A stretch of 64,000 nt of DNA from an uncultured Gammaproteobacteria bacterium (GTDB taxonomy: Bacteria; Patescibacteriota; Patescibacteriia; UBA2196; GWA2-42-15). Both the position numbers and the translations under genes were made by a program. Positions 16,955 through 53,209 of this stretch are shown here, piece after piece; positions within the stretch are counted from its first letter, which is position 1; every line of letters begins with the position of its first letter. The stretch covers positions 10,881-74,880 of the forward strand of contig CAZNIO010000003.1 of NCBI GenBank assembly GCA_964573135.1. The letters are read 5' to 3'. The notes under the pieces were generated by a model. The model had not been told where the DNA came from. It did not search any database and saw only the letters and a list, made by a program, of their open reading frames with translations.

Positions 16955-17030
16955 GCGCTCATAGCTCAGCTGGTAGAGCAGCTCCCTTTTAAGGAGAAGG
17001 TCCTAGGTTCGAATCCTAGTGGGCGTACCA
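16955..17030 (+). tRNA. tRNA-Lys (anticodon TTT), CCA encoded
   Basis: Cloverleaf: acceptor GCGCTCA/TGGGCGT, D-arm GCTC/GAGC, anticodon loop CTTTTAA, T-arm CTAGG-TTCGAAT-CCTAG, 76 nt. Confidence 0.9.
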
Positions 17031-17062
17031 CAAAAAACATCTCGAGTAGAGGTGTTTTTTGG
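17031..17062 (+). terminator. Intrinsic terminator after tRNA-Lys (ACATCTC-gagta-GAGGTGT + T6)
   Basis: 7-bp hairpin followed by TTTTTT immediately after the CCA. Confidence 0.6.
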
Positions 17063-17090
17063 TTAAAGGGGATCTGCTAGTAGCTCCGTC
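17031..17090 (+). repeat. Direct repeat copy L (terminator + GGTTAAAGGGGATCTGCT module)
   Basis: About 55 of 60 nt are shared with 19180..19236 (aaaaa[a/g]cat[c]ctcg[a/c]g[t]agagg[g]tgtttttt[t]ggttaaa[g/a]gggatctgct[a/c]g[t/c]agctc). Confidence 0.7.
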
Positions 17091-17196
17091 TGGCGCGCCA
17101 CAGGTATTTTAGTGTTTTTTGATTCAAGCCCAAAGGTGCTGTATAATAACAGTGAAAGGTCGTGATTTAAATTATTAATCTTAAAATTATAATTTT

Positions 17197-17826
17197 ATGA
17201 AAAAATTAGGTTTTATTTTAATCTTAATGCTTTTGGTAGTCGGAGTTACGGTCACGGCCAATGCAGCTAGTAAGGCTCCGGGTAAAGGAGGTAGTGATAA
17301 ATGTACCACCATTCAAAGTGGTGAACTTTTAGCCTCTGATGGAACTGTAATCGAACTTGGCTTTGATGCTTGGGGATATAATTATCAAGGCCGTATGTTT
17401 AAAGGTGGTTATTGCGACGCTTATCGCGATGCAGCCTGGTGCCAAGAATGGACTGAGGATAAATTGGCCATGAAATGGAATGACGCTTGGTTATCAAATA
17501 AGGATTGTGACGGGGATGGTTTTCTTGATCGCCATTATGGCCATGATTCATATATTGGATCTGGCGCTTGGCTGACAAATCATCAATCAGGCGAATATGA
17601 AGAAGAAGGTGAAACATGTAAGTGGAATTACTTTGTCAAAATTGTGGCCGCTCCAGCTGACGCTTATGTTGAAGATGGTTATTGGCATACAGCAGAAGGT
17701 GCAGAAATTGGAGAGGTTATTTGGGGAGCTTTTGCTATTATTCAGGAAGTAGAAAATGATCCTTGCGCTGGAGCTCATGGCATGCAATATGTTTCTCCTG
17801 ATAGGGCGGGGCTAGGTAATTGGTAA
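17197..17826 (+). CDS. Secreted Cys/Trp-rich protein with a DxDxDG calcium-binding-like motif
   Basis: Signal peptide MKKLGFILILMLLVVGVTVTANA. Contains DCDGDGFLDRH. No known family. Confidence 0.6.
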   Translation: MKKLGFILILMLLVVGVTVTANAASKAPGKGGSDKCTTIQSGELLASDGTVIELGFDAWGYNYQGRMFKGGYCDAYRDAAWCQEWTEDKLAMKWNDAWLSNKDCDGDGFLDRHYGHDSYIGSGAWLTNHQSGEYEEEGETCKWNYFVKIVAAPADAYVEDGYWHTAEGAEIGEVIWGAFAIIQEVENDPCAGAHGMQYVSPDRAGLGNW

Positions 17827-17891
17827 AAAGGGATATATTAATAAGACCCACTCAAACAATTGAGTGGGTCTTTGACTACTTAAAAATGGCG

Positions 17892-17975
17892 TTAATAAAT
17901 CGTTTATGACACTGTAGGCATATAGATATATTCCTCACTTTTAGCAATTCTGGTTCTAACAGCGTCCACGACCCC
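17892..17975 (+). repeat. Repeat A copy 1 (conserved ~85-nt non-coding element; candidate sRNA)
   Basis: ttaataaa…tatgacactgtaggcatatagatatattcct… is shared with copies at 19091 and 20804. The 3' part differs in a 12-nt block. Confidence 0.7.
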
Positions 17976-17989
17976 ATAAAAATTATTAA

Positions 17990-18015
17990 ACCCCCTATTT
18001 TAGGGGGTTTTGAAG
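17990..18015. terminator. Bidirectional terminator (CCCCCT-atttt-AGGGGG + T-run)
   Basis: Perfect 6-bp GC stem with an A-run before and a T-run after. Serves Repeat A1/ORF 17197 (+) and the dehydrogenase gene (-). Confidence 0.65.
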
Positions 18016-18046
18016 TTGAGTAAAAGTACCTACAAGCTGGTGTGTC

Positions 18047-18997
18047 CTAGTTCACTTTATTTCTAGGCTTTTCCAAAATAAAAGACTGCAGATTCTCTAT
18101 AAGAATACCTTGTTGTTTTTCTATTGCCTCTTTGGTCTTTACTGCAATCGATGGATATAATATTACGTTTTTGGTTTTCATTAGCTTATTTTTATGTTCG
18201 CTTGGAATTGTGTCAAAATACGTTTGTATAAAGCAGAATCTATTTTCATTAAGATTCTTAATTAAGTTATCAAAATCAAAAACATCCGTATGGCTTATGG
18301 AAATTATTACTGAATTTTCTTTAATATTATTTAAGACAACCCCATTCATGATCGAATTTGTTGTTTTATCATCAGGAATAAACAATCCTATAATATCACT
18401 TTCCTTGCACAAATCATTAAGCTTACGAAATTGGATGCCTCCTTGCTCTAGATTTTCTTTTTTTGATTTGGAAAAATGTTTGACATTCATTCCTAAGCCC
18501 AGTGCAAGTTCAGCAACTCTTTTACCAATCCTGCCTAAACCAATAATGCCAAAGGTTTTGTTTTTTAATTCCCAGCCAAGATATTGGTCAACCCCAAAAT
18601 TATTCTTTTTAACATTGGCTCGCGCATTTTCTAGCTCTCTTGCACAGGAAAGCAAGGTAGCAAAAACAAATTCTGCAATACTATTATCACAATATCCCGC
18701 TGTGTTTGTCACAACAATATTTTTTGAAGCTGCATAATCAACATCAATTTTGCTAACTGAGATTGAATCAGTTCCTATATATTTTAAATTTAGAGCGAGG
18801 TCAATTATTTTTTTATTAATCTTAGTTAAGTATTTTATCAAAAGAACATCTGCATCTTTGACCTCTTTATATAAACTCTGTTTATTAGAACTGCTTACAA
18901 AAACCAAAAAAATTGATAGGGATTTTAATCTATCAAGAACATCATTTTTTAACGACTTTTTAGTGTAATCGATAAGGACAATTTTATTCACTTTCAT
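18047..18997 (-). CDS. D-isomer-specific 2-hydroxyacid dehydrogenase family protein (glycerate/phosphoglycerate dehydrogenase-like)
   Basis: Rossmann motif GIIGLGRIGKRVAELALGLGMNV. 316 aa is typical for the family. Confidence 0.75.
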   Translation of the reverse strand: MKVNKIVLIDYTKKSLKNDVLDRLKSLSIFLVFVSSSNKQSLYKEVKDADVLLIKYLTKINKKIIDLALNLKYIGTDSISVSKIDVDYAASKNIVVTNTAGYCDNSIAEFVFATLLSCARELENARANVKKNNFGVDQYLGWELKNKTFGIIGLGRIGKRVAELALGLGMNVKHFSKSKKENLEQGGIQFRKLNDLCKESDIIGLFIPDDKTTNSIMNGVVLNNIKENSVIISISHTDVFDFDNLIKNLNENRFCFIQTYFDTIPSEHKNKLMKTKNVILYPSIAVKTKEAIEKQQGILIENLQSFILEKPRNKVN

Positions 18998-19090
18998 TGG
19001 GTTACTGGCATTTAGTTGATGATTTAATTTTAGCTAAATTATGGGAAAGATGCAAAATTGTCAGGATCTACATTGTTTTTTGTATTGCAT

Positions 19091-19179
19091 AATTAATAAA
19101 GAAATTATGACACTGTAGGCATATAGATATATTCCTGACTTTCCTGGATTCTAGTTCTAACAGAGTCCACGACCCAGTA
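19091..19179 (+). repeat. Repeat A copy 2
   Basis: Identical to copy 3 over ~89 nt (aattaataaagaaattatgacactgtagg…gtccacgacccagta). Confidence 0.75.
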
Positions 19180-19236
19180 AAAAAGCATCCTCGCGAGAGG
19201 GTGTTTTTTTGGTTAAAAGGGATCTGCTCGCAGCTC
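19180..19236 (+). repeat. Direct repeat copy R (terminator CATCCTC-gcga-GAGGGTG + T7 + GGTTAAAAGGGATCTGCT)
   Basis: Near-copy of the tRNA-Lys 3' flank 17031..17090. The embedded hairpin + T-run is a terminator for Repeat A2. Confidence 0.7.
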
Positions 19237-19311
19237 AAAAAAATTGCCTAAACTTAATTTTTTATTTATACTTAAATGTATATATAATAATTAATTATCA
19301 ATAATAAAAGT

Positions 19312-20778
19312 ATGAAAAAATTTATTTTTATGGCCTTATGCATAATTTTGCCATTCAACAATATATCAGCTAATAACGAGGTTACATTAGAAATTATTAC
19401 TCCCAAAGAGGGGCAGTATCTTGCCGTAAACGACTCTATTACTTTTAGTTGGGTGCAAACAGGCTTAGATAAGCTAATGCTAGAAGCACAAATTTGTTGG
19501 CATGATGATATGCAGAGCTTATCCGCAGTAAAGGAAATACATTGTGCTGGAAATTCGGATATTACAAATGGGCTTATTGATGTCGACACTAATGCAAGCA
19601 ATAATTCATTTGAATGGCAACTCCCCAAAATGTTTAAGTCTGGTTTATATAAAATATGGGCTAAAGGTTATGCTAATACTGGGACAAGCGATTCTGTTTA
19701 TTTGGAAGATAAGATGAATCAATATGTAATAATAGATAAGGGAGACCAGAATTTTAGTTTAATTAATTCTACTAGTTTAAATAACATCAGTCAGAACAAG
19801 GTGATTGTTGATATTGGCACTAACAAGCTTTATGCAAATGCGTCAAGATATTTTGTTAGATGGAAAACTCCATGTAACGGCCAATACGCTAATGTCTGGC
19901 TGGTAGCAGAGGTTTTACAAGATGGAACCGAGATAGTTATTCCTATGACTTTTTATGAATGGCATTATGAAACGAATAAATTAAATTTAGATGTGTTCAA
20001 TAATAAGAATATATATTATGGATTAATTCCCGGTTCTGGAAGTACAGACAAAACTCAGCACCATCAATTACCTAGTGATCCCAGTTCGGGTAAGTTTAAT
20101 TTTGCACAAATTTTAATTAAAAGATCACCTGCGGGTGAATATTATACCGAACGAGTGTCTAGCAACTTATATACAAAAGGAAAAGAGCATTATAAGATAA
20201 GGGTTGATGTTCATGGTAACAATTGTTCAGCTACAGGATTAAGTAGATATATTTATCCTACTGCTGTTCTAGATGAACCTATACCATCGCTACCTTTGGA
20301 TAATGTTGTTAATGATTCCCCTGAGACAACCACTATCAGTGATAATAACAACACTTCGCCTAAACTAGTTGCAAAAAAAGCAACAATTGATAAAACATTG
20401 AGTAATAGGCTCAAAGGCAAACTCCTCCTCCAAGTCCAAAACCGTGGCCGTATTTGGTATGTAAATCCAGGTGACGCCAGGCGACATGAGGTAACATTCG
20501 CCAATGCTTTACCTTTATTCGAAAAGTTATCATTGGGTATTACTGATGCTGATTTAGATAAAATTCCAATGCACAATGATAATTGGACATCATCGATTGG
20601 TGATAGATTAAAAGGTAAAATACTCTTACAAGTACAAGATAGAGGAAGAATTTGGTACGTAGATTTCAATGGTAAAAAATGGGAAGTAACATGGAAAAAT
20701 TTAATGACGTTGTTTGAAAGTTTGGCTTTGGGTATCACTGATAGTGATTTGGATAAGATACAGATGGAGGGATTATAA
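19312..20778 (+). CDS. Secreted protein with two C-terminal ~55-aa tandem repeats
   Basis: Signal peptide MKKFIFMALCIILPFNNISA. C-terminal repeats LKGKLLLQVQNRGRIWYVNPGDARRHEVTFANALPLFEKLSLGITDADLDKI / LKGKILLQVQDRGRIWYVDFNGKKWEVTWKNLMTLFESLALGITDSDLDKI. Confidence 0.7.
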   Translation: MKKFIFMALCIILPFNNISANNEVTLEIITPKEGQYLAVNDSITFSWVQTGLDKLMLEAQICWHDDMQSLSAVKEIHCAGNSDITNGLIDVDTNASNNSFEWQLPKMFKSGLYKIWAKGYANTGTSDSVYLEDKMNQYVIIDKGDQNFSLINSTSLNNISQNKVIVDIGTNKLYANASRYFVRWKTPCNGQYANVWLVAEVLQDGTEIVIPMTFYEWHYETNKLNLDVFNNKNIYYGLIPGSGSTDKTQHHQLPSDPSSGKFNFAQILIKRSPAGEYYTERVSSNLYTKGKEHYKIRVDVHGNNCSATGLSRYIYPTAVLDEPIPSLPLDNVVNDSPETTTISDNNNTSPKLVAKKATIDKTLSNRLKGKLLLQVQNRGRIWYVNPGDARRHEVTFANALPLFEKLSLGITDADLDKIPMHNDNWTSSIGDRLKGKILLQVQDRGRIWYVDFNGKKWEVTWKNLMTLFESLALGITDSDLDKIQMEGL

Positions 20779-20803
20779 TTAAGAAATAATAGGATATTTT
20801 TTA

Positions 20804-20891
20804 ATTAATAAAGAAATTATGACACTGTAGGCATATAGATATATTCCTGACTTTCCTGGATTCTAGTTCTAACAGAGTCCACGACCCAGTA
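20804..20891 (+). repeat. Repeat A copy 3
   Basis: Identical to copy 2 through gacccagta. Followed by its own distinct terminator. Confidence 0.75.
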
Positions 20892-20894
20892 CCA

Positions 20895-20921
20895 AAAACC
20901 CCGACAAATGTCGGGGTTTTT
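20895..20921. terminator. Bidirectional terminator (CCCCGACA-aat-GTCGGGG, A-run/T-run)
   Basis: Perfect 8-bp stem. Downstream of Repeat A3 (+) and of hup (-). Confidence 0.7.
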
Positions 20922-20950
20922 ATATTATATACCGAATAGCTACACTCTTT

Positions 20951-21244
20951 CTAGAGTACTGCGTCCTTGGCAGCTTTAGCAACACGGAACTTAACTACAG
21001 TCTTAGCAGGGATCTGGATGGTTTCACCAGTAGCTGGATTTCTACCTTCGCGAGCTTTTCTGTCTACCTTAACTAATTTCCCAAGTCCAGGAAGAATGAA
21101 TTCGCCGCTGTTTACAACTTCGCTATAAGCTAGCTCAGTTAGATTCTCCATGAAAGAGATGATATCTTTCTTACTCATGTCGTTTTTCTCGGCAAGTGCC
21201 TGCATGAGTTGAGATTTTGTCAATTTGGCCATATTTTTTTTCAT
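20951..21244 (-). CDS. hup: DNA-binding protein HU
   Basis: …GFGKFEV-like core (ILPGLGKLVKVDRKAREGRNPATGETIQIPAKTVVKFRVAKAAKDAV). Possible start at the internal Met (21232). Confidence 0.85.
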   Translation of the reverse strand: MKKNMAKLTKSQLMQALAEKNDMSKKDIISFMENLTELAYSEVVNSGEFILPGLGKLVKVDRKAREGRNPATGETIQIPAKTVVKFRVAKAAKDAVL

Positions 21245-43636: not shown

Positions 43637-43911
43637 CTGGAAAATATTTCACCCATATTACCCTCCAATAGCGCAAGGATAATTAGGAAAACCTGACTAT
43701 CCTTAACTTGAGGCTACTCGATCCGGTTAGGAGGGGTTCCTTCACTTTCGCCACTATTAGAGGAAAATATAAGCAATATATATATTGATCAATTGTCAAA
43801 TTATATTAACATGAATTACAAAACTTGTCAAGTAGCGATAAACATGTTATATTAATTTATATTAAAAATGCTGTAAAAAGCGTTGTTTTTTAATAACTTT
43901 GACCCCGAAAA

Positions 43912-43986
43912 GGTCCCTTCGTCTAGTGGTTAGGACACTAGGTTTTCATCCTAGAAACAGGGGTTCGATTCCCCTAGGGACTACCA
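43912..43986 (+). tRNA. tRNA-Glu (anticodon TTC), CCA encoded
   Basis: Anticodon arm CTAGG-TTTTCAT-CCTAG, T-arm AGGGG-TTCGATT-CCCCT, acceptor GGTCCCT/AGGGACT (G1-U72). Confidence 0.85.
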
Positions 43987-43987
43987 A

Positions 43988-44020
43988 AGAGGACTCACTC
44001 GCAAGATTGGGTCTTTTTTG
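43988..44020 (+). terminator. Putative terminator after tRNA-Glu (imperfect hairpin + T6)
   Basis: aagaggactcactcgcaagattgggtctttttt is about 80% identical to the module after Repeat B2 (47088..47121). Confidence 0.4.
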
Positions 44021-44172
44021 ATTGGAATGTTAACGCAGGAAGTGATTTTCTAGCTTCAATTGAAATATAGATAAGTTGGTTGCAGAAAATATCTATGAAA
44101 TGTACACATTTGACAGATAAAAAAGTTTTATGTATACTTAAAATATATTGAATAATTAAAAAAGTTTTAAAT

Positions 44173-45378
44173 ATGATTAAAAAATACATCAAACGCCCTA
44201 TATACTTAGATCAAATTAAGCCCTTTATTGACAAGGATATTATTAAAGTTATCATCGGACAACGACGAGTTGGTAAAAGTTATTTGTTGTTCCAAATAAT
44301 GGATGAGATAAAAAAGAAAAATAAAACAGCTAATATTATTTATATCAACAAAGAATTAAATGAATTTGAAACAATAAAAAATGACAAAGACTTATTGGAT
44401 TATATTAAAAAAAATAATAAGAATAAGAAGAGTTATGTTTTTATTGATGAAATACAGGATATTCAAAATTTTGAAAAGGCCTTAAGAAGCTTGAAAGCTG
44501 AGGGGAAATATGATATCTACTGCACTGGCAGTAATGCTAATTTGCTATCAAGCGAAATAGCCACTTATCTTAGCGGTCGATATATTGAGATAAACGTTTT
44601 TGGATTAAGTTATGTTGAATTTTTACAATTTCATAATTTGAAGGAAGATACAGATTCATTTTTAAAATATATCAAATATGGTGGTTTGCCTTATTTAATA
44701 AATTTAGATTTAACTGACGAAATTGTTTATCATTATTTAAAAAGTATTTATAACACAATTCTATTGAAGGATGTTGTCAGCAGATTTAATATTCGTAATG
44801 TTTCATTTTTAGAAAGTTTAATTGACTACCTGGCTGATAATACTGGTAGCTTAGTTTCTTCTAAGAAAATTAGTGATTTTTTAAAATCACAAAAAATTAA
44901 TATTTCAACAAACATTGTCTTGGATTATTTATCTTTTTTAGCAAATGCATTCTTTATTTTCAAAGTCCAAAGATCTGAGGTACAGGGTAAAAAAATATTT
45001 GAAATTAATGATAAATATTACTTTGAAGATCTTGGGCTCAGACATTCCTTAATTGGTTATAAGCAGGTCGATATAAATAAGATTTTAGAAAATTTAGTTT
45101 TTTTACATTTACAAATTTTAGGCTACAAAGTAACAGTTGGGCAACTGAAAGAAAAAGAAATTGATTTTGTGTGTGAAAAAGAAAATAAAAAAATATATAT
45201 TCAAGTGGCTTACTTAATTAATGATAAAAATAAAGATAGGGAGTTTGGAAATTTATTACAAATCAAGGATAATTATCCTAAAATAGTTGTTTCAACTGAT
45301 GAATTAATAGACAACAGTGAATATAAAGGAGTAAAACATTTTAATATTAGAAATTTTTTAACCATAACATCTTTTTAA
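44173..45378 (+). CDS. AAA-family ATPase with DUF4143-like C-terminal domain
   Basis: Walker A GQRRVGKSY, Walker B …VFIDEIQ…. 401 aa, architecture typical of AAA_14+DUF4143 ATP-binding proteins. Confidence 0.7.
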   Translation: MIKKYIKRPIYLDQIKPFIDKDIIKVIIGQRRVGKSYLLFQIMDEIKKKNKTANIIYINKELNEFETIKNDKDLLDYIKKNNKNKKSYVFIDEIQDIQNFEKALRSLKAEGKYDIYCTGSNANLLSSEIATYLSGRYIEINVFGLSYVEFLQFHNLKEDTDSFLKYIKYGGLPYLINLDLTDEIVYHYLKSIYNTILLKDVVSRFNIRNVSFLESLIDYLADNTGSLVSSKKISDFLKSQKINISTNIVLDYLSFLANAFFIFKVQRSEVQGKKIFEINDKYYFEDLGLRHSLIGYKQVDINKILENLVFLHLQILGYKVTVGQLKEKEIDFVCEKENKKIYIQVAYLINDKNKDREFGNLLQIKDNYPKIVVSTDELIDNSEYKGVKHFNIRNFLTITSF

Positions 45379-45407
45379 GTTTGCTAAATTTTATACACTT
45401 TACAACC

Positions 45408-45479
45408 CTGGAATCACAAGATGCCACCTCCTAATATCCCCCACTATTTGTTTTAAATTCTTTAAACAATGGTCTACCA
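45408..45479 (+). repeat. Repeat B copy 1 (~72-nt conserved non-coding element)
   Basis: ctggaatcacaagatgccacctcctaatatcccccactatttgttttaaattctttaaacaatggtctacca. About 90% identity with copies at 47018 and 47989. Confidence 0.75.
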
Positions 45480-45500
45480 TTCCAGATTTCCCCTTAGATC

Positions 45501-45548
45501 GCCCGCCCCTTGGGCGGATGAATTCTCGGCGCTTCGCGCCGTTTTTTT
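45501..45548 (+). terminator. Tandem GC hairpins + T8 after Repeat B1
   Basis: CCGCC-ccttg-GGCGG followed by GGCGC-ttc-GCGCC, then gttttttt. Confidence 0.6.
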
Positions 45549-45807
45549 GTTTTATCTAATTTTTGAGAGTTGTTTGGTTTGAAAAGTTTTGTAAGTATGA
45601 AAATATAAGGTCGTCACTTGCTATTTACTTGGGACGACTTTTTTATTGTAAATTGGTTTAATCTTACGAAATTGCCCCTTATTTTAGAGGGTTTTGGGGT
45701 TGGGCAATGTGGACTTTTTCTATTGCATAATATATAATCAAGTCAGATAAAAATACATACAGACTCTAAGAAACAAGTAAGTAAATATCAATACAAATAA
45801 TACCCCT

Positions 45808-46803
45808 ATGATGATCAATAAAAGTACATATATTTTTGGTGGCGGAGATTCTGATGGATTGCTTGGCATTGCCACAATATTAAAAAAAGTAAATGATGCT
45901 TTTTTCTCTTTTACTTCCCCTAGAACCTTACATAGTCTAATCCATGATCTTGTAAAAGGAACTAACGGTAGTGTCTATATTGTAGATTTAGCAATAGATG
46001 CTTCAACATATAAAGATTTATTTAAAGAAATAGAAGGACGGCCTGGATTTGATAGTTATTTTTTTGACCAACATAATTTACCCGCTGGCGTATCCAAAGA
46101 GGACTTGCCGTTCACTGATTTATCAATTGATAGTGCGGTATCTAGCTGTGAAAATACATACGTTACAATTGGAAGCGATCTGGATCCTATAATTCCAGCC
46201 ATGGCTTCCTTAAATGACGGCATTTCTGATACTGAAAAAATAAGGGAAGCACAAAAAATTCATGGGGAGAAACTATATTCAAATGCTAAAATATTAAAAT
46301 TTGGTTTGGCATACAATATTAAAGATAATAAATTTAAACGTCAATTAGTGTATGATTTTAAAGAGGGCAAATATCCAGAATCTATTCCTGAATTAGTAGA
46401 TAGATACAAAAAAGGCCTTATACGGTGGGAAGAAATTAAAAAGATGGCTAATGAAAGGAAAAAAAGCCTTACACATCTAGCGTATGGTTTGTTCCCAAAT
46501 TTGAAAGGGGGGTTTACTAACTTACTAGCAGCATACCTAGCAGAAAGCACTGAAAAATTAGTTGGGGTTAGTATCCTTGAAACTGACCGCACCCTGCAAA
46601 AAATGAATATTATTTCAAATGATCCATCACTGAATATTGGTTTGTTTGTACATAAAGTAGCAAACAAATTTAATGGTTTTGGCGGGGGTAGTATTTCTAG
46701 CGCTGGGGCTACTTTACAGAAAAAGGAGACTACAAACTTTCTGCAAAACCTTAATAAAGAGATTGGAGATTATAAAAAATTATTAAAAAGCAATCAAGAC
46801 TAA
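45808..46803 (+). CDS. Hypothetical protein, possible DHH/DHHA1-like phosphoesterase
   Basis: N-terminal IFGGGDSDGLLG (DxD-like motif I), …VDLAID…, …FFDQHN… (degenerate DHH), C-terminal …FNGFGGGSIS… (DHHA1 GGGH-like). Weak assignment. Confidence 0.45.
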   Translation: MMINKSTYIFGGGDSDGLLGIATILKKVNDAFFSFTSPRTLHSLIHDLVKGTNGSVYIVDLAIDASTYKDLFKEIEGRPGFDSYFFDQHNLPAGVSKEDLPFTDLSIDSAVSSCENTYVTIGSDLDPIIPAMASLNDGISDTEKIREAQKIHGEKLYSNAKILKFGLAYNIKDNKFKRQLVYDFKEGKYPESIPELVDRYKKGLIRWEEIKKMANERKKSLTHLAYGLFPNLKGGFTNLLAAYLAESTEKLVGVSILETDRTLQKMNIISNDPSLNIGLFVHKVANKFNGFGGGSISSAGATLQKKETTNFLQNLNKEIGDYKKLLKSNQD

Positions 46804-46807
46804 AAAG

Positions 46808-46930
46808 ATGACCAGAAAAAACATTGAAATAATTTTACCAGAAGTATCGCAAGACACTATTAAGTACGACTTGCGCAAAATGAAAGAAAAAGGCTTAATT
46901 GTCCAAAGTGGTGAGTCTGTAAATACATAG
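46808..46930 (+). CDS. Small ORF (40 aa), possible winged-helix fragment or gene remnant
   Basis: MTRKNIEIILPEVSQDTIKYDLRKMKEKGLIVQSGESVNT starts 5 nt after the stop of the preceding gene and resembles the C-terminus of a wHTH regulator. Below the track cutoff. Confidence 0.25.
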   Translation: MTRKNIEIILPEVSQDTIKYDLRKMKEKGLIVQSGESVNT

Positions 46931-47017
46931 TATGAAGCTAATTTTTAGTTAAAAAAACTACCTAAAATTTAACCGCAATTAGAAGCGATCCCGAATAATT
47001 AATTAAGTATTTAATTC

Positions 47018-47087
47018 AGGAATCACAAAATACCATCTCCTAATATCCCCTACTATTTGTTTTAAATTCTTTAAACAGTGGTCTACC
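47018..47087 (+). repeat. Repeat B copy 2
   Basis: caggaatcacaaaataccatctcctaatatcccctactatttgttttaaattctttaaacagtggtctacca. Ends in CTACCA like a tRNA 3' end. Confidence 0.75.
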
Positions 47088-47093
47088 AAAGAA

Positions 47094-47121
47094 TACTCAC
47101 TCGTAAGAGTGGGTGTTTTTT
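47094..47121 (+). terminator. Intrinsic terminator after Repeat B2 (CACTC-gtaa-GAGTG + T6)
   Basis: Hairpin + T-run. The sequence resembles the tRNA-Glu flank. Confidence 0.5.
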
Positions 47122-47151
47122 GTTTAGGCTAATATTTATGCTATAATACAA

Positions 47152-47769
47152 ATGTTAACTAAATTAAACAGTATGAAAAAGTATTTTAAAAAATCTAATC
47201 CAAAAATAAAAATTAATACAATTTATGTTTTTATTGATGCTTCAAATGTCTGGAATGCGGTCAAGGCTGAAAAGAAATTTATTGAATACAAGAAGATTAA
47301 AAATTGGTTGAAAAAGAATTTTAATGCTACTAATGTTGAAATTTTTTATTATGATGCCTACCCCAAAGATGGGACAAGGGAATATAGCCTAGATGGTAAA
47401 CATAGATTTTTTACCTATCTAAAAAAAGGTCTCGGCTTCACGGTGCGTAAAAAAGAATTAAAAAGAATTACCATTACTAGTAAAGATGGGGAATCTATCA
47501 TGGAGAAAGGTAATATGGATATAGAGATGGTTATTGATGCGATCCATAATATGAATAAATATGATACTGCTGTTTTGTTTAGTGGAGATGCTGATTTTTT
47601 GGCACTAGTTAATTATTTAAAAAATGGTGGTAAAAAAGTCTATATTTTCTCCTCAAAAGATAATATATCTCGCGAACTTAAAACTGGCGGGAATGGATAT
47701 TTTGATGTAAGGGATATAAAAGAATTCTGGGGTAAGGATTTGAAATATCGTATAAATAAGCAAAAATAA
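47152..47769 (+). CDS. NYN-domain (LabA-like) putative ribonuclease
   Basis: …IYVFIDASNVWNA… and …VLFSGDADF… acidic residues, typical of the NYN/LabA-like PIN-related fold. 205 aa. Confidence 0.65.
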   Translation: MLTKLNSMKKYFKKSNPKIKINTIYVFIDASNVWNAVKAEKKFIEYKKIKNWLKKNFNATNVEIFYYDAYPKDGTREYSLDGKHRFFTYLKKGLGFTVRKKELKRITITSKDGESIMEKGNMDIEMVIDAIHNMNKYDTAVLFSGDADFLALVNYLKNGGKKVYIFSSKDNISRELKTGGNGYFDVRDIKEFWGKDLKYRINKQK

Positions 47770-47988
47770 AACCACCCTCAACTAAGAGGATGGCTCTAGG
47801 ATGTATAACCCTAACAGTTCTATGGAAGAACCGAAAGACATTATTAATATACACTTTTTTAATAAAAATGTCAAATTTCATCCACAGGGTGTCAAAATAG
47901 CATTATTATCAAATATTTATCTGATATATTAACTATATCAGATTATATCAATTTAAGGGATGTTAATGGTGAGCAATAGTCCGTAACT

Positions 47989-48059
47989 CAGGAATCACAA
48001 AATACCATCTCCTAACATCAGCCACTATTTGTTTTAAATTCTTTAAACAATAGTCTACC
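47989..48059 (+). repeat. Repeat B copy 3
   Basis: caggaatcacaaaataccatctcctaacatcagccactatttgttttaaattctttaaacaatagtctacc. Confidence 0.75.
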
Positions 48060-48249
48060 GAAGAAGACTTCTCCTCGCGAGTGGTCTTTTTTGATTTGTA
48101 GATTAGAAAAAAATAGAGTTTCTCAGTTTTTACGTGATTTATAGATTGAAATAAGGATTTGGTTTATTTCAATAAATGGCATATTATTACAACATAAATA
48201 ACGACATTGTAAAGATATAAATTATCAAGAAAAAACTATAAAATCTTTA

Positions 48250-48633
48250 GTGACAGCGATAAGTTATGTTGTTTCACTTATGGCTTTAGGTTTTATTTCA
48301 TTTCTTGTTTCCATCGGCTTATCTTGGAGTCGTTGTGATTTGAAATGCGAGGTATCTCACTTTTTATCTAGTGAGCTACTGGCTATATTTTTTTGGCCGG
48401 TGATGCTCATAGGCGACATTGATAACCTTGTTTTCGTATTGATTTTTTGTGCTCTTTTTAATATTCTTTTTGTTTATTTTATTTTGCGTTTAATTATAGC
48501 GAAGACGCGGTTGTCAAATAAACAAATTATTTTAATAATTATTATCGGTTCTTTGGTAATTGCTCCTATTTTACCGATTATTGGATTTAACAGTGAATTC
48601 TATCGCCAGTTTGTAATGGACTTCTGGTCTTAA
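48250..48633 (+). CDS. Small integral membrane protein (127 aa, GTG start)
   Basis: Four hydrophobic segments. No family assignable. Confidence 0.45.
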   Translation: MTAISYVVSLMALGFISFLVSIGLSWSRCDLKCEVSHFLSSELLAIFFWPVMLIGDIDNLVFVLIFCALFNILFVYFILRLIIAKTRLSNKQIILIIIIGSLVIAPILPIIGFNSEFYRQFVMDFWS

Positions 48634-48940
48634 AAGTCTTTTTTGATTTCGATTCAGTTGTGATTATTTTTTTACACACTATATCTAATTTTTAAATTGA
48701 CCTTATTTTTTATAATTGTCTGAAAAACTTCAATACCTCCTCCACCAAAGTTTTTCAAAGGAATAAGGCATATAAGCATCAGAGATTTTTTAAAAAGTAC
48801 TTCTTTTTAATATTGAGCAACCAAAACCCAATATCTGAAGCCATTTATGCAAGCCTATTGGCCTAACCCTATACACAACCTGCTTAGTCCTGCCAAGACC
48901 CTTGCAAAATACTATATTTATGCTAATGTTTAATCAATAG

Positions 48941-49008
48941 AAACAGTTTGTGATTCTGGTATTATAAAATACCGTTTTTTAATATCAGCGATTATTTGTT
49001 GCAAATTC
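48941..49008 (+). repeat. Partial/rearranged Repeat B-like segment immediately upstream of tRNA-Val
   Basis: …gattatttgttgcaaattctttaaataatgg matches the 3' half of Repeat B. Upstream tttgtgattctggtatt is the inverted form of the Repeat B 5' segment gaatcacaaa…atacc. Confidence 0.5.
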
Positions 49009-49009
49009 T

Positions 49010-49086
49010 TTAAATAATGGGGCACTTAGCTCAGTTGGCTAGAGCATCTCGTTTACACCGAGAGGGTCGGGGGTTCGAGTCCCTCA
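49010..49086 (+). tRNA. tRNA-Val (anticodon TAC), CCA encoded
   Basis: Acceptor GGGCACT/AGTGCCC, anticodon arm TCTCG-TTTACAC-CGAGA, T-arm GGGGG-TTCGAGT-CCCTC. Confidence 0.9.
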
Positions 49087-49117
49087 GTGCCCACCAGAAA
49101 AACTAACCCATGCTTAT

Positions 49118-49378: not shown

Positions 49379-49451
49379 GGGCCGCTAGCTCAGTTGGTAG
49401 AGCACCTGCTTTGCAAGCAGGGGGTCAGGAGTTCGAGTCTCCTGCGGTCCA
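49379..49451 (+). tRNA. tRNA-Ala (anticodon TGC), CCA not encoded
   Basis: Acceptor GGGCCGC/GCGGTCC with the G3:U70 Ala identity pair. Anticodon arm CCTGC-TTTGCAA-GCAGG. Confidence 0.9.
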
Positions 49452-50922: not shown

Positions 50923-50997
50923 GCGGGTGTCGTATAATGGTTATTATATTGGGTTGCCAATCCAAAGATGGCGGTTCGATTCCGCTCACCCGCTCCA
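50923..50997 (+). tRNA. tRNA-Gly (anticodon GCC), CCA encoded
   Basis: Acceptor GCGGGTG/CACCCGC, anticodon arm TTGGG-TTGCCAA-TCCAA, T-arm GGCGG-TTCGATT-CCGCT. Track ORF 50919..51113(-) is spurious. Confidence 0.85.
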
Positions 50998-51395: not shown

Positions 51396-51440
51396 CTCCA
51401 TCCAAAAAACTCTAGAAATTCTAGAGTTTTTTGGATGAAT
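51396..51440. repeat. Palindromic element copy 1 (AAAAAACTCTAGAA-A-TTCTAGAGTTTTTT with CCATCC/GGATG extension); doubles as a bidirectional terminator
   Basis: Near-perfect palindrome of about 40 bp. A second copy at 53141 has the centre base flipped (A vs T). Confidence 0.75.
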
Positions 51441-51480
51441 TGACATTGCCATACCCAATAAAAAATGGTATAATTACAAT

Positions 51481-51705
51481 ATGAAACAAGCTAAAAAATA
51501 TATAAAGTCATCATCTTTCTGGGATTATAAGATTGAGAAAAGGGCACTTAAAAATGAAAAAGTGAAAAAGTTTTGGTTGGCTAGAAAAATCAATATGGCG
51601 GACTGGCAAGGGATCAAGAAAAAAGACCTAGAAAAATATTTACCCGAACTTGATATCAGGCCGGAAATGAAAAATTTGTTAACTTTATTTTTGGAACATG
51701 CTTAA
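51481..51705 (+). CDS. Small hypothetical protein (74 aa), candidate AbiEi-like/antitoxin partner
   Basis: 8-nt overlap with the downstream AbiEii-like gene. Basic/charged. No clear motif. Confidence 0.4.
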   Translation: MKQAKKYIKSSSFWDYKIEKRALKNEKVKKFWLARKINMADWQGIKKKDLEKYLPELDIRPEMKNLLTLFLEHA

Positions 51706-52375
51706 GAATATTTTAAATCCAACACAGATAAAAGCATTAACTGCTATTGGCCAAAGCGAACTGGCTAAAATTTATTATTGGACTGGTGGTACTGCTTTGG
51801 CGTATAAATACTTAAACAATAGATTATCAGTTGACCTGGATTTTTTTAGTTATGATTTAATAGCAGATGAAGAGCTGTTGGCTTTGGTAAATAATATCAA
51901 AAAGCAATTAGGGGTTAAAAGAATTAAATTTTATAAGAATTTAAATCGTCAACAATTTATCCTTGATTTTGGCAATAAAATCAGCTTGCAACTTGAGTTT
52001 GTATATTTCCCCTTTGATAATATATCAAAACCAAAATCAGACCAGGATTTTAAGATTAAAGTTGATTCATTAGTTGATATGGCGACTAATAAAACGCTAG
52101 CTACTTATCAGAGAAATGAACCTAAAGATATTTTTGATTTATATTCCCTTTTAGAAACTAAAAAATTTAAATTGCCTGGGTTAATAAAAAATGTTAATAA
52201 AAAATTTGAAATAGAAATTGATGAAGCAGATTTGGAAGCAAAAATTTTAAGTAATATTGATTTATTGGAGAATATAAGGCCATTGATATTGAATAAGAGG
52301 AATTTCAAAATTGGCAAGATAGAAGCTTTTTTTACCAAGAAATCTGTTAACTATTTAAAGACGGTTATTTTTTGA
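51698..52375 (+). CDS. Nucleotidyltransferase of the AbiEii/AbiGii (DUF1814) toxin family
   Basis: …YYWTGGTALAYKYLNNRLSVDLDFFS… matches the hGGTAL…R.S.DLDF signature of type IV TA / abortive-infection NTases. Confidence 0.6.
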   Translation: MLKNILNPTQIKALTAIGQSELAKIYYWTGGTALAYKYLNNRLSVDLDFFSYDLIADEELLALVNNIKKQLGVKRIKFYKNLNRQQFILDFGNKISLQLEFVYFPFDNISKPKSDQDFKIKVDSLVDMATNKTLATYQRNEPKDIFDLYSLLETKKFKLPGLIKNVNKKFEIEIDEADLEAKILSNIDLLENIRPLILNKRNFKIGKIEAFFTKKSVNYLKTVIF

Positions 52376-52439
52376 TACCAAACCCTGTGTTGAGAACTAA
52401 AAATTGAGATGGTAATATTAAAAGCAAAAGTGATATACA

Positions 52440-53069
52440 ATGAATAAAATTCAACAAGCCAATCAAGAGTCTAGACATGGTAATAATTTGAATGATAAGA
52501 ATTTTAAGAGTGTGGCAGGACTCTATGAGAAGAGTTTAAAGTTTCCAGCCCAAAAATACCAAAAGCAGCTAATTATTTGCCCGATCGGACTTGTTAGTTC
52601 AGGAAAAACCACAGTCGTCAAGATTTTGTGTAAAAAGTTACCACTTTTGCGCGTTTCAACTGATGAGATTAGATTACTATTAAAAGAAAAAGAGTACAAT
52701 TTTACTAGGACACGTGAATTGGCTTGGCATATAATTAATAAATATTTAAAGCAGGGGTTCAGTATTGCCATTGATGCAGATTGTATTTCCGAAGAGGCAC
52801 GCAAATATATAAAAGATTTGGAAAAACAAACTAAAACCAAAGTTTTTTGGATTCATATTAACCCACCCCGGAGTTTTATTTTAAATAATTTAAGTAAACC
52901 TAAAAAAATATTCAAAAATACTGAACATGCATTGCGGGTTTATAAAATGCACAAAGTATTACATAATAAGATAAATTTTCCTTTTATATATATTTTTGAT
53001 ACGGCCAAAAATAATGTGATAGAACAAACCAAGGAGTGCGTGTTACTAATTAAGAAGGAATTAAGTTAA
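52440..53069 (+). CDS. P-loop NTPase/kinase (AAA_33/zeta-toxin-like fold)
   Basis: Walker A CPIGLVSSGKTTVVKIL. 209 aa. No further family resolution. Confidence 0.55.
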   Translation: MNKIQQANQESRHGNNLNDKNFKSVAGLYEKSLKFPAQKYQKQLIICPIGLVSSGKTTVVKILCKKLPLLRVSTDEIRLLLKEKEYNFTRTRELAWHIINKYLKQGFSIAIDADCISEEARKYIKDLEKQTKTKVFWIHINPPRSFILNNLSKPKKIFKNTEHALRVYKMHKVLHNKINFPFIYIFDTAKNNVIEQTKECVLLIKKELS

Positions 53070-53140
53070 CCAATTCATATGATTGAATTGTGGGATATAA
53101 GAATTGTGCCCTAAGCGGAGTAATATTAGTTCTAGCGACC

Positions 53141-53180
53141 TCCGCCAAAAAACTCTAGAATTTCTAGAGTTTTTTGAATA
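53141..53180. repeat. Palindromic element copy 2 (AAAAAACTCTAGAA-T-TTCTAGAGTTTTTT)
   Basis: Same 30-bp core as 51396..51440 with the complementary centre base, consistent with inverted orientation. Between convergent genes. Confidence 0.75.
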
Positions 53181-53209
53181 GGCGAATAAAATCATTATAA
53201 CCTCATTTT

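Follow-up and report, generated by a model that had tools for sequence, protein, structure and literature searches.

Toxin–antitoxin (TA) systems of type I with a convergent antisense RNA overlapping the 3' end of the protein gene include txpA/RatA and bsrG/SR4 of Bacillus subtilis. Type III TA systems are represented by ToxIN, CptIN and TenpIN, and some of them act in abortive infection. Bacteria of the candidate phyla radiation (CPR, Patescibacteria) have tiny genomes in which, to our knowledge, few defence systems have been recognised and almost no regulatory RNAs have been characterised. A 64,000-nucleotide (nt) stretch of DNA from such a bacterium (contig CAZNIO010000003.1, positions 10,881 to 74,880; hereafter the window, to whose positions the coordinates refer) has been analysed here. 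Its tRNA-Glu and tRNA-Val genes enclose a block of accessory genes, one of which encodes an NYN-domain nuclease and faces a small RNA (sRNA) gene on the opposite strand. The metagenome contigs and contigs of relatives used for comparison are designated by L-numbers. With moderate confidence, the gap between the two tRNA genes is read as a lineage-specific insertion hot spot holding four independent cassettes of differing origin, in which the NYN gene and its sRNA are proposed to form an RNA-controlled ribonuclease (RNase) module.

The NYN nuclease and its convergent small RNA

The pair and the promoter of the sRNA are located as follows:

47152–47769, plus strand: gene for a LabA/MARF1-type NYN nuclease of 205 amino acids (aa), cassette 3a, assigned with Pfam, alignment, an AlphaFold2 (AF2) model and Foldseek
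47761–47844, minus strand: sRNA gene, cassette 3b, delimited with alignments, RNAalifold and a covariance model; the RNA runs from about 47839 to 47763 (about 77 nt)
47874–47869 and 47851–47846, minus strand: −35 box (TTGACA) and −10 box (TATATT) of the sRNA promoter, with a 17-nt spacer and 11 of 12 consensus positions in the promoter scan

DNA similarity between the window and the other NYN loci does not cease at the NYN stop codon but continues for about 80–120 nt. The sequences that follow NYN in 50 loci were aligned with that of the window, and the −35 (TTGACA) and −10 (TATACT or TATATT) boxes proved to be conserved across the aligned loci, with a spacer of 16–17 nt whose sequence is not conserved. 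The RNA comprises a hairpin (P1), an invariant single-stranded core (AGGG-N4-ACATCC-N-AG) and a terminator hairpin (P2) with a U-run. The U-run overlaps the NYN stop codon, and the sRNA is antisense to the sequence directly 3' of NYN. In the alignment, 94.7% of the cells are paired, compared with 39–60% after sliding of the partners. Two-sided changes occur in ten pairs, 76 cells are compensatory versus 26 in shuffles, and the covariation score is 0.358 versus 0.07–0.10. Many of the pairs are G·U, which would be A·C mismatches on the NYN-sense strand, and the functional strand is thereby fixed as the one antisense to NYN. The fold in the window has an energy of −29.4 kcal/mol (z = −5.5) on the sRNA strand and −14.9 kcal/mol (z = −1.7) on the other.

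The covariance model built for the sRNA has a single match in the window (87.2 bits, E = 3e-20). A strong match, always antisense to NYN, was found beside every NYN gene with downstream sequence (53 loci). The matches number 55 in total and score 54–94 bits, with 76–94 bits being typical and 54–71 bits obtained where a contig end cuts the sRNA; locus L046 has two matches, its second NYN copy being a 3' fragment. Among loci without NYN, viral contigs and relatives, there was no strong match (best score 20.7 bits). Eleven short-pattern matches in the IMG/VR viral collection were rejected as chance, since the model gave them at most 21 bits. A search of Rfam 15 returned only tRNAs over 43.0–51.5 kb (E ≤ 1) and, in seven small NYN loci (E ≤ 10), noise far below the gathering scores. 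A coding open reading frame (ORF) in place of the sRNA was ruled out, as length differences of the P1 loop between loci are not multiples of three and early stops occur in several loci. No description of an NYN-linked RNA in CPR bacteria, or of an NYN-based TA system, was found in the literature. The comparisons of these sequences thus give good support to a previously undescribed RNA family, with its own promoter, terminator and covarying structure, linked to NYN.

The assignment of the protein to the NYN domain, made in a preliminary description of this stretch, was borne out by Pfam (PF01936, E = 7.1e-23, 82.2 bits against a cutoff of 24.2). The residues invariant in the family alignment include D29, D123, E125, D129, D146 and D148. 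The AF2 model has a predicted local distance difference test (pLDDT) score of 73, and its nearest folds by Foldseek are VPA0982 (2qip), of unknown function, and the NYN domain of MARF1 (6fdl). In CPR lineages including Nealson-, Roizman-, Wolfe-, Falkow-, Colwell- and Pacebacteria, the protein shows 70–84% identity, while the figure for Der is 43–49%. The earlier statement that none of the genes of the block belongs to the CPR core therefore needs qualifying for NYN.

This conservation, which is also seen in the sRNA core, is one of several observations in favour of a core CPR housekeeping pair lying in the island by chance, for example an enzyme of RNA processing and an RNA that is its substrate, its cofactor or its autoregulator. 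Between close relatives, NYN keeps the same locus and shows 89% identity against 92–94% for its neighbours, diverging about like RF-2 and NrdD. It is often co-directional with the housekeeping genes among which it is embedded, and the IMG/VR collection contained no NYN of this family when searched with single-protein and family patterns. Other observations point away from a housekeeping role. The neighbours of NYN vary among 55 metagenome loci (RF-2, NrdD/NrdG, MurG, RecJ, LexA, SNase, DUF3800 and type I restriction-modification (R-M) subunits) and differ even for homologues 73–78% identical to that of the window. The GC-content at third codon positions (GC3) of NYN is mostly 0.16–0.41, with 0.20–0.64 for the neighbours, and tracks the host weakly (rho = 0.27, p = 0.09), NYN being compositionally foreign in GC-richer hosts. 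In distant pairs NYN shows 59–76% identity and most shared neighbours (LexA, MurG, RecJ, RF-2 and the type I R-M S subunit) 25–55%, which suggests horizontal transfer. The NYN–sRNA pair is also found inside a type I R-M locus in L040–L043 and L073/L074, between the N6_Mtase/HSDR_N and specificity-subunit genes, where L040, L041 and L043 have a DUF3800 gene as well; L046 bears a duplicated fragment; and in the window the pair is within a low-GC insertion. The evidence on a core gene versus a mobile module is mixed. It is read as vertical inheritance on short time scales combined with horizontal spread on long ones, with extreme functional constraint as a live alternative, and the housekeeping pair is considered somewhat unlikely.

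Three loci attracted attention through the state of their NYN gene. In L075 (3404–4006) the frame is interrupted by a stop exactly at the invariant Trp34 and the adjoining sRNA is intact (92.5 bits); the stop would mark a pseudogene or else reflect stop-codon reassignment in that organism. In L046 (8158–8516) a truncated NYN (residues 115–200) keeps an intact sRNA, which scores like the one beside the full-length copy 1.9 kb upstream. An apparently broken NYN with an intact sRNA in L055 was an artefact of ORF calling, and NYN is intact there.

The NYN gene and the sRNA constitute a self-contained two-part module spread across CPR bacteria. By analogy with known TA systems, it is tentatively proposed, at somewhat less than an even chance, that this is an RNase module which is restrained by RNA and serves addiction or abortive infection. 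The sRNA would restrain NYN in the manner of an antitoxin RNA, by pairing with a read-through NYN 3' untranslated region, by binding the protein via the invariant loop, or by both. As P2 has no U-run on the NYN-sense strand, NYN transcripts should read through and be fully complementary to the sRNA. Complementarity in cis needs no conservation of sequence, so that the invariance of the loop and the conservation of the stems imply that a protein recognises the RNA, the simplest candidate being NYN itself, as in type III systems. Pairing in trans with the NYN translation-initiation region showed no enrichment (−21.3 kcal/mol versus −25.3 kcal/mol for control windows of coding sequence). A broader proposal, which is considered unlikely as it stands, would make NYN and its obligate sRNA a new class of RNA-controlled ribonuclease, so far limited to CPR, with the RNA bound by protein through the invariant loop, as an antidote or as a guide or decoy, and not merely antisense. 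The sRNA segment GAACUGUUAGGGUAUUACAUCC (47780–47810, core and 3' strand of P1) may also resemble the complement of the universal 16S rRNA positions 785–806 (the "790 loop" region) at about 16 of 22 positions, a likeness that could be due to chance. On this putative likeness, the pair could be supposed to target or protect ribosomes, imposing dormancy or abortive infection.

An accessory island of separate cassettes

The remaining genes of the island and its borders are as follows:

43912–43986, plus strand: tRNA-Glu(TTC), left anchor of the island (ARAGORN, Rfam)
43987–44023, plus strand: tRNA-Glu trailer with a terminator hairpin and a T-run (repeat search, sequence reading), source of the copies found after Repeats B2 and B3 described below
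44173–45378, plus strand: cassette 1, ATPase with AAA_14 and DUF4143 (Pfam, E = 4.5e-33 and 1.4e-14)
45808–46803, plus strand: cassette 2, predicted two-domain DHH/DHHA1 phosphoesterase (homologues, AF2, Foldseek, PDB profile)
46808–46930, plus strand: cassette 2, 40-aa ORF with weak helix-turn-helix (HTH) similarity (Pfam, E = 0.006–0.08, all matches below the cutoff)
48250–48633, plus strand: cassette 4, multi-pass membrane protein of 127 aa (hydropathy)
49020–49096, plus strand: tRNA-Val(TAC), right anchor of the island (ARAGORN, Rfam)
49379–49451: tRNA-Ala (ARAGORN, Rfam)

Together with the NYN gene at 47152–47769, five plus-strand ORFs lie between tRNA-Glu and tRNA-Val. The two tRNA genes are 5,033 nt apart in the window and 263 nt apart in the Kuenenbacteria relatives L099 and L100. 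According to the Der GTPase, the nearest named relatives belong to Candidatus Kuenenbacteria (closest 74% identity, next 64–67%; other Patescibacteria 43–49%), in which the synteny upstream is kept (giant pilin-like protein, YqeY, HisRS, signal peptidase, LytR, Der and Pth). The GC-content is 0.255–0.332 over 44–49 kb and about 0.35–0.37 in the flanking kilobases; GC3 is 0.22–0.26 for the island genes and 0.31 for the flanking core genes. In strain L098, an rve-family transposase begins directly after tRNA-Glu, in the same Glu–Val gap (L098 12572–13814). Given the 263-nt spacing in relatives, the low GC-content and the rve insertion sequence (IS) in the same gap, the interval is a true insertion, an accessory island bounded by tRNAs, as the preliminary description had proposed. 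Identical copies of the island are present in several assemblies of related samples, and the window sequence also occurs in JGI metagenome 3300005915. The island itself is of an ordinary kind, a small accessory stack in a tRNA gap, while its separator is unusual and instructive. No integrase or recombinase was detected with Pfam within the island or among the called genes of about 33–58 kb, the part of the window covered by the scan.

Other contigs touch the borders of the island. L002 and L004 match it exactly otherwise, their homology to the window beginning exactly 2 nt upstream of tRNA-Glu, and carry an rve transposase (L002 1–875, L004 1–178) that ends about 110 nt 5' of tRNA-Glu and is 52% identical to that of L098. 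This rve (DDE) IS family occurs next to tRNA-Glu in different strains or lineages and may prefer tRNA boundaries. The contig of L019, a species representative of Kuenenbacteria, stops 74 nt past tRNA-Glu and is hence silent on the Glu–Val gap. A "variant" at the 3' end of tRNA-Ala in L093/L094 was dismissed as an assembly chimera that, through a repeated tRNA, runs on into another tRNA 3' end and the start of 23S rRNA. Because of this chimera, junctions at tRNAs, including those of L002/L004 and L006, are to be treated with caution.

The ATPase is preceded by a promoter-like site (TTGACA-N17-TATACT, 44110–44138, promoter scan). Its Pfam matches agree with the assignment to AAA ATPases with DUF4143 that had been made from the sequence, and it also matches the PADLOC family PDC-S01 over the full length (PDLC04787, E = 1.1e-146, positions 6–407 of 412). 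PDC-S01 is an ATPase fused to a PD-(D/E)XK domain, a very common single-gene candidate that has repeatedly moved between Archaea and Bacteria; its defence role is predicted from genomic embedding, and most PDCs await validation by experiment (PMC12988326). Read by eye, the C-terminus of the island ATPase (45300–45378) has EIDFV...IQVAY where the E-x-K of PD-(D/E)XK is expected, and the nuclease part may be inactive. A stand-alone candidate defence gene is a plausible description of cassette 1.

The product of the first gene of cassette 2 matched Pfam only through DHHA1 and below the threshold (E = 2.8e-4, 21.7 bits against a cutoff of 25.9), with Pfam DHH unmatched. The DHH-like assignment of the preliminary description was upheld by structure prediction: the AF2 model has a pLDDT of 92 and a predicted template modelling (TM) score (pTM) of 0.87, and its top Foldseek matches are the archaeal pAp phosphatase 8a8k (TM 0.72/0.75) and archaeal RecJ/Cdc45-like nucleases, with E-values down to 3.6e-15. 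Further matches include phosphodiesterases of the NrnA, GdpP, PggH and DhhP types, and the family profile aligns the C-terminus to archaeal RecJ2 (E = 1.5e-5). The motifs GGGDSDG (DxD) and VDLA (motif II Asp) are present, DxD and the motif II Asp being kept in the family. Motif III reads FFDQHN in the island protein and the DHHA1 motif GGGSxSSAG; throughout the family alignment, DQH stands for DHH and GGGS for GGGH. The family is very rare; a word-indexed search of 5.8 billion sequences yielded only nine homologues. The closest, 83% identical, is in L033/L034; the best resolved sits by RadA/Rad51-type, RPA-like and HxlR genes in a contig that looks archaeal; another lies among methyltransferase and ArsR-type genes. 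The fold of the model makes a phosphoesterase with short nucleotides or oligonucleotides as substrates probable.

The 40-aa ORF behind this gene, earlier taken for a fragment of a winged-helix protein, is indeed present. Its HTH matches are all sub-threshold, though; it has no NCBIfam match and is not conserved in L033/L034 beside the closest DHH homologue. It is probably a gene relic. The small membrane protein of cassette 4, correctly recognised as such before, has three to four strongly hydrophobic segments. It has no Pfam, PADLOC, NCBIfam or PHROG match and no real homologue among 1.84 billion cluster representatives, and is an orphan.

The preliminary description saw in the ATPase, the DHH protein, NYN and the membrane protein a candidate module acting jointly in defence or RNA surveillance. 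The four genes do lie on one strand within 5 kb, the ATPase belongs to a candidate defence family, NYN has weak PADLOC matches to an NYN accessory model and to HEC-09, and an AbiEii gene is found further downstream. As regards the ATPase, the match to PDC-S01 lends support to the defence part of that view. The single joint module does not fit the other evidence. Cassettes 1, 2 and 3 are each followed by a terminator hairpin, cassettes 1 and 2 each have a promoter-like site of their own ahead of them, and the genes are set apart by repeat units. Searched with tblastn, none of the 55 NYN loci contained the island ATPase, DHH or membrane protein, and the contexts examined for the DHH homologues had no AAA_14 or NYN neighbour; this lack of co-occurrence largely refutes a joint system. 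The origins of the genes differ, with a DHH homologue in an archaeal-looking contig, NYN spread CPR-wide and the membrane protein an orphan, and PADLOC treats PDC-S01 as a single-gene system. Joint action of the four proteins is thus regarded as very unlikely. In view of the terminators and repeats between the genes, the lack of co-occurrence and the differing origins, the island appears to be a stack of unrelated, separately transcribed cassettes and not one defence machine.

Two further features were observed outside the island. A non-coding stretch of about 130 nt at 43640–43775, which lies between pth and the promoter of tRNA-Glu, shows about 88% identity to Kuenenbacteria L098/L019, whose Der is only 67% identical. 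Its minus strand folds as a long closed multi-branch structure (−51 kcal/mol, two-sequence consensus) with a few compensatory changes and no Rfam match; it is probably an unannotated structured RNA of one or the other strand. The promoter-like site of tRNA-Glu that follows (TTGTCA-N17-TATATT, 43825–43853, promoter scan) lies in a stretch that reads as conserved in relatives. On the other side, 3' of tRNA-Gly (50923–50997), the region of about 51400–53200 contains a 74-aa ORF, an AbiEii-domain gene and an AAA_33 kinase-like gene, all three enclosed by a 35-nt palindromic repeat that occurs at 51402 and at 53145 (copies 94% identical). The region forms a further small defence- or TA-like islet beside a tRNA.

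Composite separators and the formation of the array

The cassettes are partitioned by Repeat B, with copies at 45403, 47012, 47984 and 48951. The repeat units and an adjacent relic are as follows:

45403–45548, plus strand: unit of Repeat B1 (45403–45470), followed by GGTCTACCA (45471–45479) and two GC-rich hairpins
47012–47125, plus strand: unit of Repeat B2 (47012–47079), followed by GGTCTACCA (47080–47088) and a copy of the tRNA-Glu terminator (hairpin 47098–47115 and T-run)
47984–48097, plus strand: unit of Repeat B3 (47984–48051), followed by AGTCTACCG (48052–48060) and a diverged copy of the tRNA-Glu terminator
48754–48810, plus strand: possible ATPase-gene 3' relic from a second DUF4143-ATPase (73% over 59 nt; tblastn 10/18 identical, E = 0.05)
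48951–49019, plus strand: Repeat B4, the native upstream or leader region of tRNA-Val, which it abuts directly

The positions of tRNA-Glu, of the four same-strand genes and of the four repeats, and the partitioning of the genes by Repeat B, agree with the preliminary description. The 26-nt core of Repeat B has four matches in the window and none in shuffles. B1–B3 are mutually 83–90% identical, and B4 is 66% identical to the reference copy B2. B4 keeps an extended −10-like box, TGGTATTAT, where B1–B3 have GGAATCAC, and the promoter scan found no convincing standard sigma-70 promoter inside B1–B3. The second hairpin after B1 (45527–45541) precedes a T-run and is terminator-like. The last nine nt of tRNA-Glu read GGACTACCA, from which GGTCTACCA differs by one base. 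These nine nt of the tRNA-Glu 3' end recur after B1–B3, and a trailer copy of about 37 nt follows in B2 and B3 only. In each of the separators B1–B3, sequence from upstream of tRNA-Val is therefore fused with the 3' end of tRNA-Glu, making a chimera to which B2 and B3 add the tRNA-Glu terminator. Neither this composite nature nor the minus-strand sRNA gene at 47761–47844 had been noticed earlier. The core pattern had zero matches in public metagenome and species-representative genome collections, which hold no source contig, and the 263-nt Glu–Val spacer of the relatives is too diverged to be aligned with Repeat B. The repeat is lineage-specific.

A chimeric joint of this type would arise if the segment between the 3' end of tRNA-Glu, itself included, and the 5' end of tRNA-Val were duplicated in tandem, and the duplicated tRNA flanks would then serve as short homology arms for the swapping of other cassettes. 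As B4 runs into tRNA-Val, Repeat B belongs to the native chromosome and not to the cassettes. Just before B4, the stretch at 48754–48810 reads FKGIRHISIRDFLKSTSF and a stop, compared with YKGVKHFNIRNFLTITSF and a stop at the C-terminus of the ATPase. The similarity is only suggestive of a remnant of the 3' end of a second DUF4143-ATPase, which would fit a duplication followed by replacement and decay.

A different route to the same layout would be the serial site-specific integration of small circular cassettes at the tRNA-Glu 3' end by a recombinase acting in trans, in an integron-like manner, with GGTCTACCA as the crossover core and Repeat B as an arm of the attachment site. The cassettes are flanked by a direct repeat of the tRNA 3' end and trailer, the classic signature of integration into tRNA genes, and the 9-mer is identical in B1 and B2 and nearly so in B3. 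In other assemblies, contigs also break at both tRNAs: L003 corresponds to 43955–49055, the island with partial tRNAs at its ends, and L010 stops at 43941. Contig breaks of this kind may be artefacts caused by repeats, as in the L093 chimera. The called genes of about 33–58 kb include no integrase, and the fold of Repeat B is unlike an attC site. Since B4 continues into tRNA-Val and not into the core, Repeat B is chromosomal and integration is the less parsimonious explanation; the possible ATPase relic beside B4 suggests duplication and decay instead. Integration is accordingly held to be improbable.

It could also be supposed that a former tRNA array, its tRNA bodies deleted, survives in the form of the Repeat B units, between which the protein genes are ordinary residents. 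Each unit does consist of an upstream or leader region, nine nt matching tRNA ends (GGTC...TACCA) and a terminator, with the body missing. The 263-nt spacer of the relatives is without extra tRNAs, though, and no intact tRNA genes were seen at the positions of B1–B3. The upstream part comes from tRNA-Val and the 3' part from tRNA-Glu, making a chimera of two genes, and the same deletion would be needed three times, or once with subsequent duplication, whereupon the explanation collapses into duplication and cassette exchange. A tRNA-array origin is considered very unlikely.

A second array was observed at 16955–21000. There, tRNA-Lys is followed by three copies of a "Repeat A" of about 100 nt (17882, 19083 and 20795), and the terminator and flank downstream of tRNA-Lys (17031–17086) are duplicated after Repeat A2 (about 19190–19236), the same architecture as in Repeat B. 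The cargo of this array is a secreted 209-aa protein, an opposite-strand ORF of 316 aa, which by eye we presume to be dehydrogenase-like, and a 488-aa protein. Since the layout of the Repeat A array resembles that of Repeat B, the process seems to be general in this genome.

Several points weigh against an insertion hot spot with an RNA-controlled RNase module. Duplication of the tRNA flanks predicts the joint GG(G)ACTACCA, the observed joint is GGTCTACCA, and one extra substitution or deletion must be assumed. In keeping with the lack of a recombinase or integrase among the called genes of about 33–58 kb, the formation of the array is deduced from sequence alone. The defence role of PDC-S01 is itself unvalidated (PMC12988326). 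The high conservation of NYN and its vertical inheritance between close relatives would also fit a housekeeping RNase, and, as the viral collection contained no NYN, nothing ties it directly to phages. The function of the sRNA and the toxicity of NYN are proposed from sequence and layout. Finally, L006 (1165–1448) is without the sRNA. This contig is 100% identical to the window at 46602–47771, enters the rpsF gene (ribosomal protein S6) 2 nt past the NYN stop (window position 47771), and is also missing B3 and cassette 4 with its membrane-protein gene. The contig represents a variant with a deletion or rearrangement, or else an assembly chimera; if real, it argues against an essential antitoxin.

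Comparison with described systems

The main novelty of the locus is an sRNA family tied one-to-one to a highly conserved NYN ribonuclease in many CPR lineages. Were the pair a TA or abortive-infection system, RNA-antidote systems would extend to NYN/PIN-like nucleases, and CPR biology would gain a portable two-part system of about 720 bp that is tractable in E. coli. Were it a core RNA-processing pair, an unrecognised conserved RNA would have been found in a major bacterial radiation. The separators, for their part, suggest how a genome without a visible integrase piles up foreign single-gene cassettes via reused, duplicated tRNA flanks.

The island shares with tRNA-gene genomic islands and tandem island arrays the tRNA borders, the repeats of a tRNA 3' end, the low GC-content, the accessory or defence-like cargo and the absence from relatives. 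It differs from them in that no integrase was found, the cassettes are tiny (1–1.6 kb, one or two genes each) and the repeat combines the upstream region of the neighbouring tRNA-Val with the trailer of tRNA-Glu, a chimera indicative of duplication and recombination rather than of att sites. The row of single-gene, same-strand cassettes with a repeated element after each is reminiscent of integron cassette arrays. Unlike in integrons, no intI was found, Repeat B folds only as a terminator hairpin with weak local stems, and not in an attC-like manner, the cassettes have individual terminators, as well as individual promoter-like sites in the case of cassettes 1 and 2, and the repeat is derived from tRNA flanks.

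Among the individual proteins, the ATPase has the same AAA_14 and DUF4143 architecture as PDC-S01, with a full-length match to its hidden Markov model. In the AF2 model, the DHH protein has the two-domain DHH and DHHA1 fold of 8a8k and the RecJ/Cdc45-like enzymes, but only 10–17% identity to them among the listed matches, and it is without the extra domains of RecJ; the archaeal DHH/DHHA1 enzymes also differ from it in motif III (here DQH) and in the DHHA1 motif (here GGGS). NYN resembles the LabA/MARF1-type proteins of PF01936 in its 82-bit Pfam match, its nearest folds (2qip and 6fdl) and its invariant acidic residues. It is distinguished by its stand-alone form of 200 aa, its very high conservation in CPR bacteria and its linkage to an sRNA gene.

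The NYN–sRNA pair is similar to type I TA systems with 3'-overlapping antisense RNAs in its convergent layout, the strong, constitutive-type promoter of the RNA, the terminator hairpin shared at the 3' ends and the full complementarity of the sRNA to the read-through 3' untranslated region of the protein gene. In type I systems the toxin is a small hydrophobic membrane peptide, whereas here the protein is a soluble NYN nuclease of 205 aa, and the single-stranded core of the sRNA is invariant, which would not be needed for antisense pairing alone. With type III TA systems the pair shares an endoribonuclease and a dedicated structured RNA that could bind and inhibit it. The nuclease has an NYN/PIN-like fold in place of the ToxN/AbiQ toxin fold, and the sRNA is encoded in a single copy on the opposite strand downstream of the nuclease gene, whereas the type III RNA is a tandem-repeat array located upstream on the same strand.

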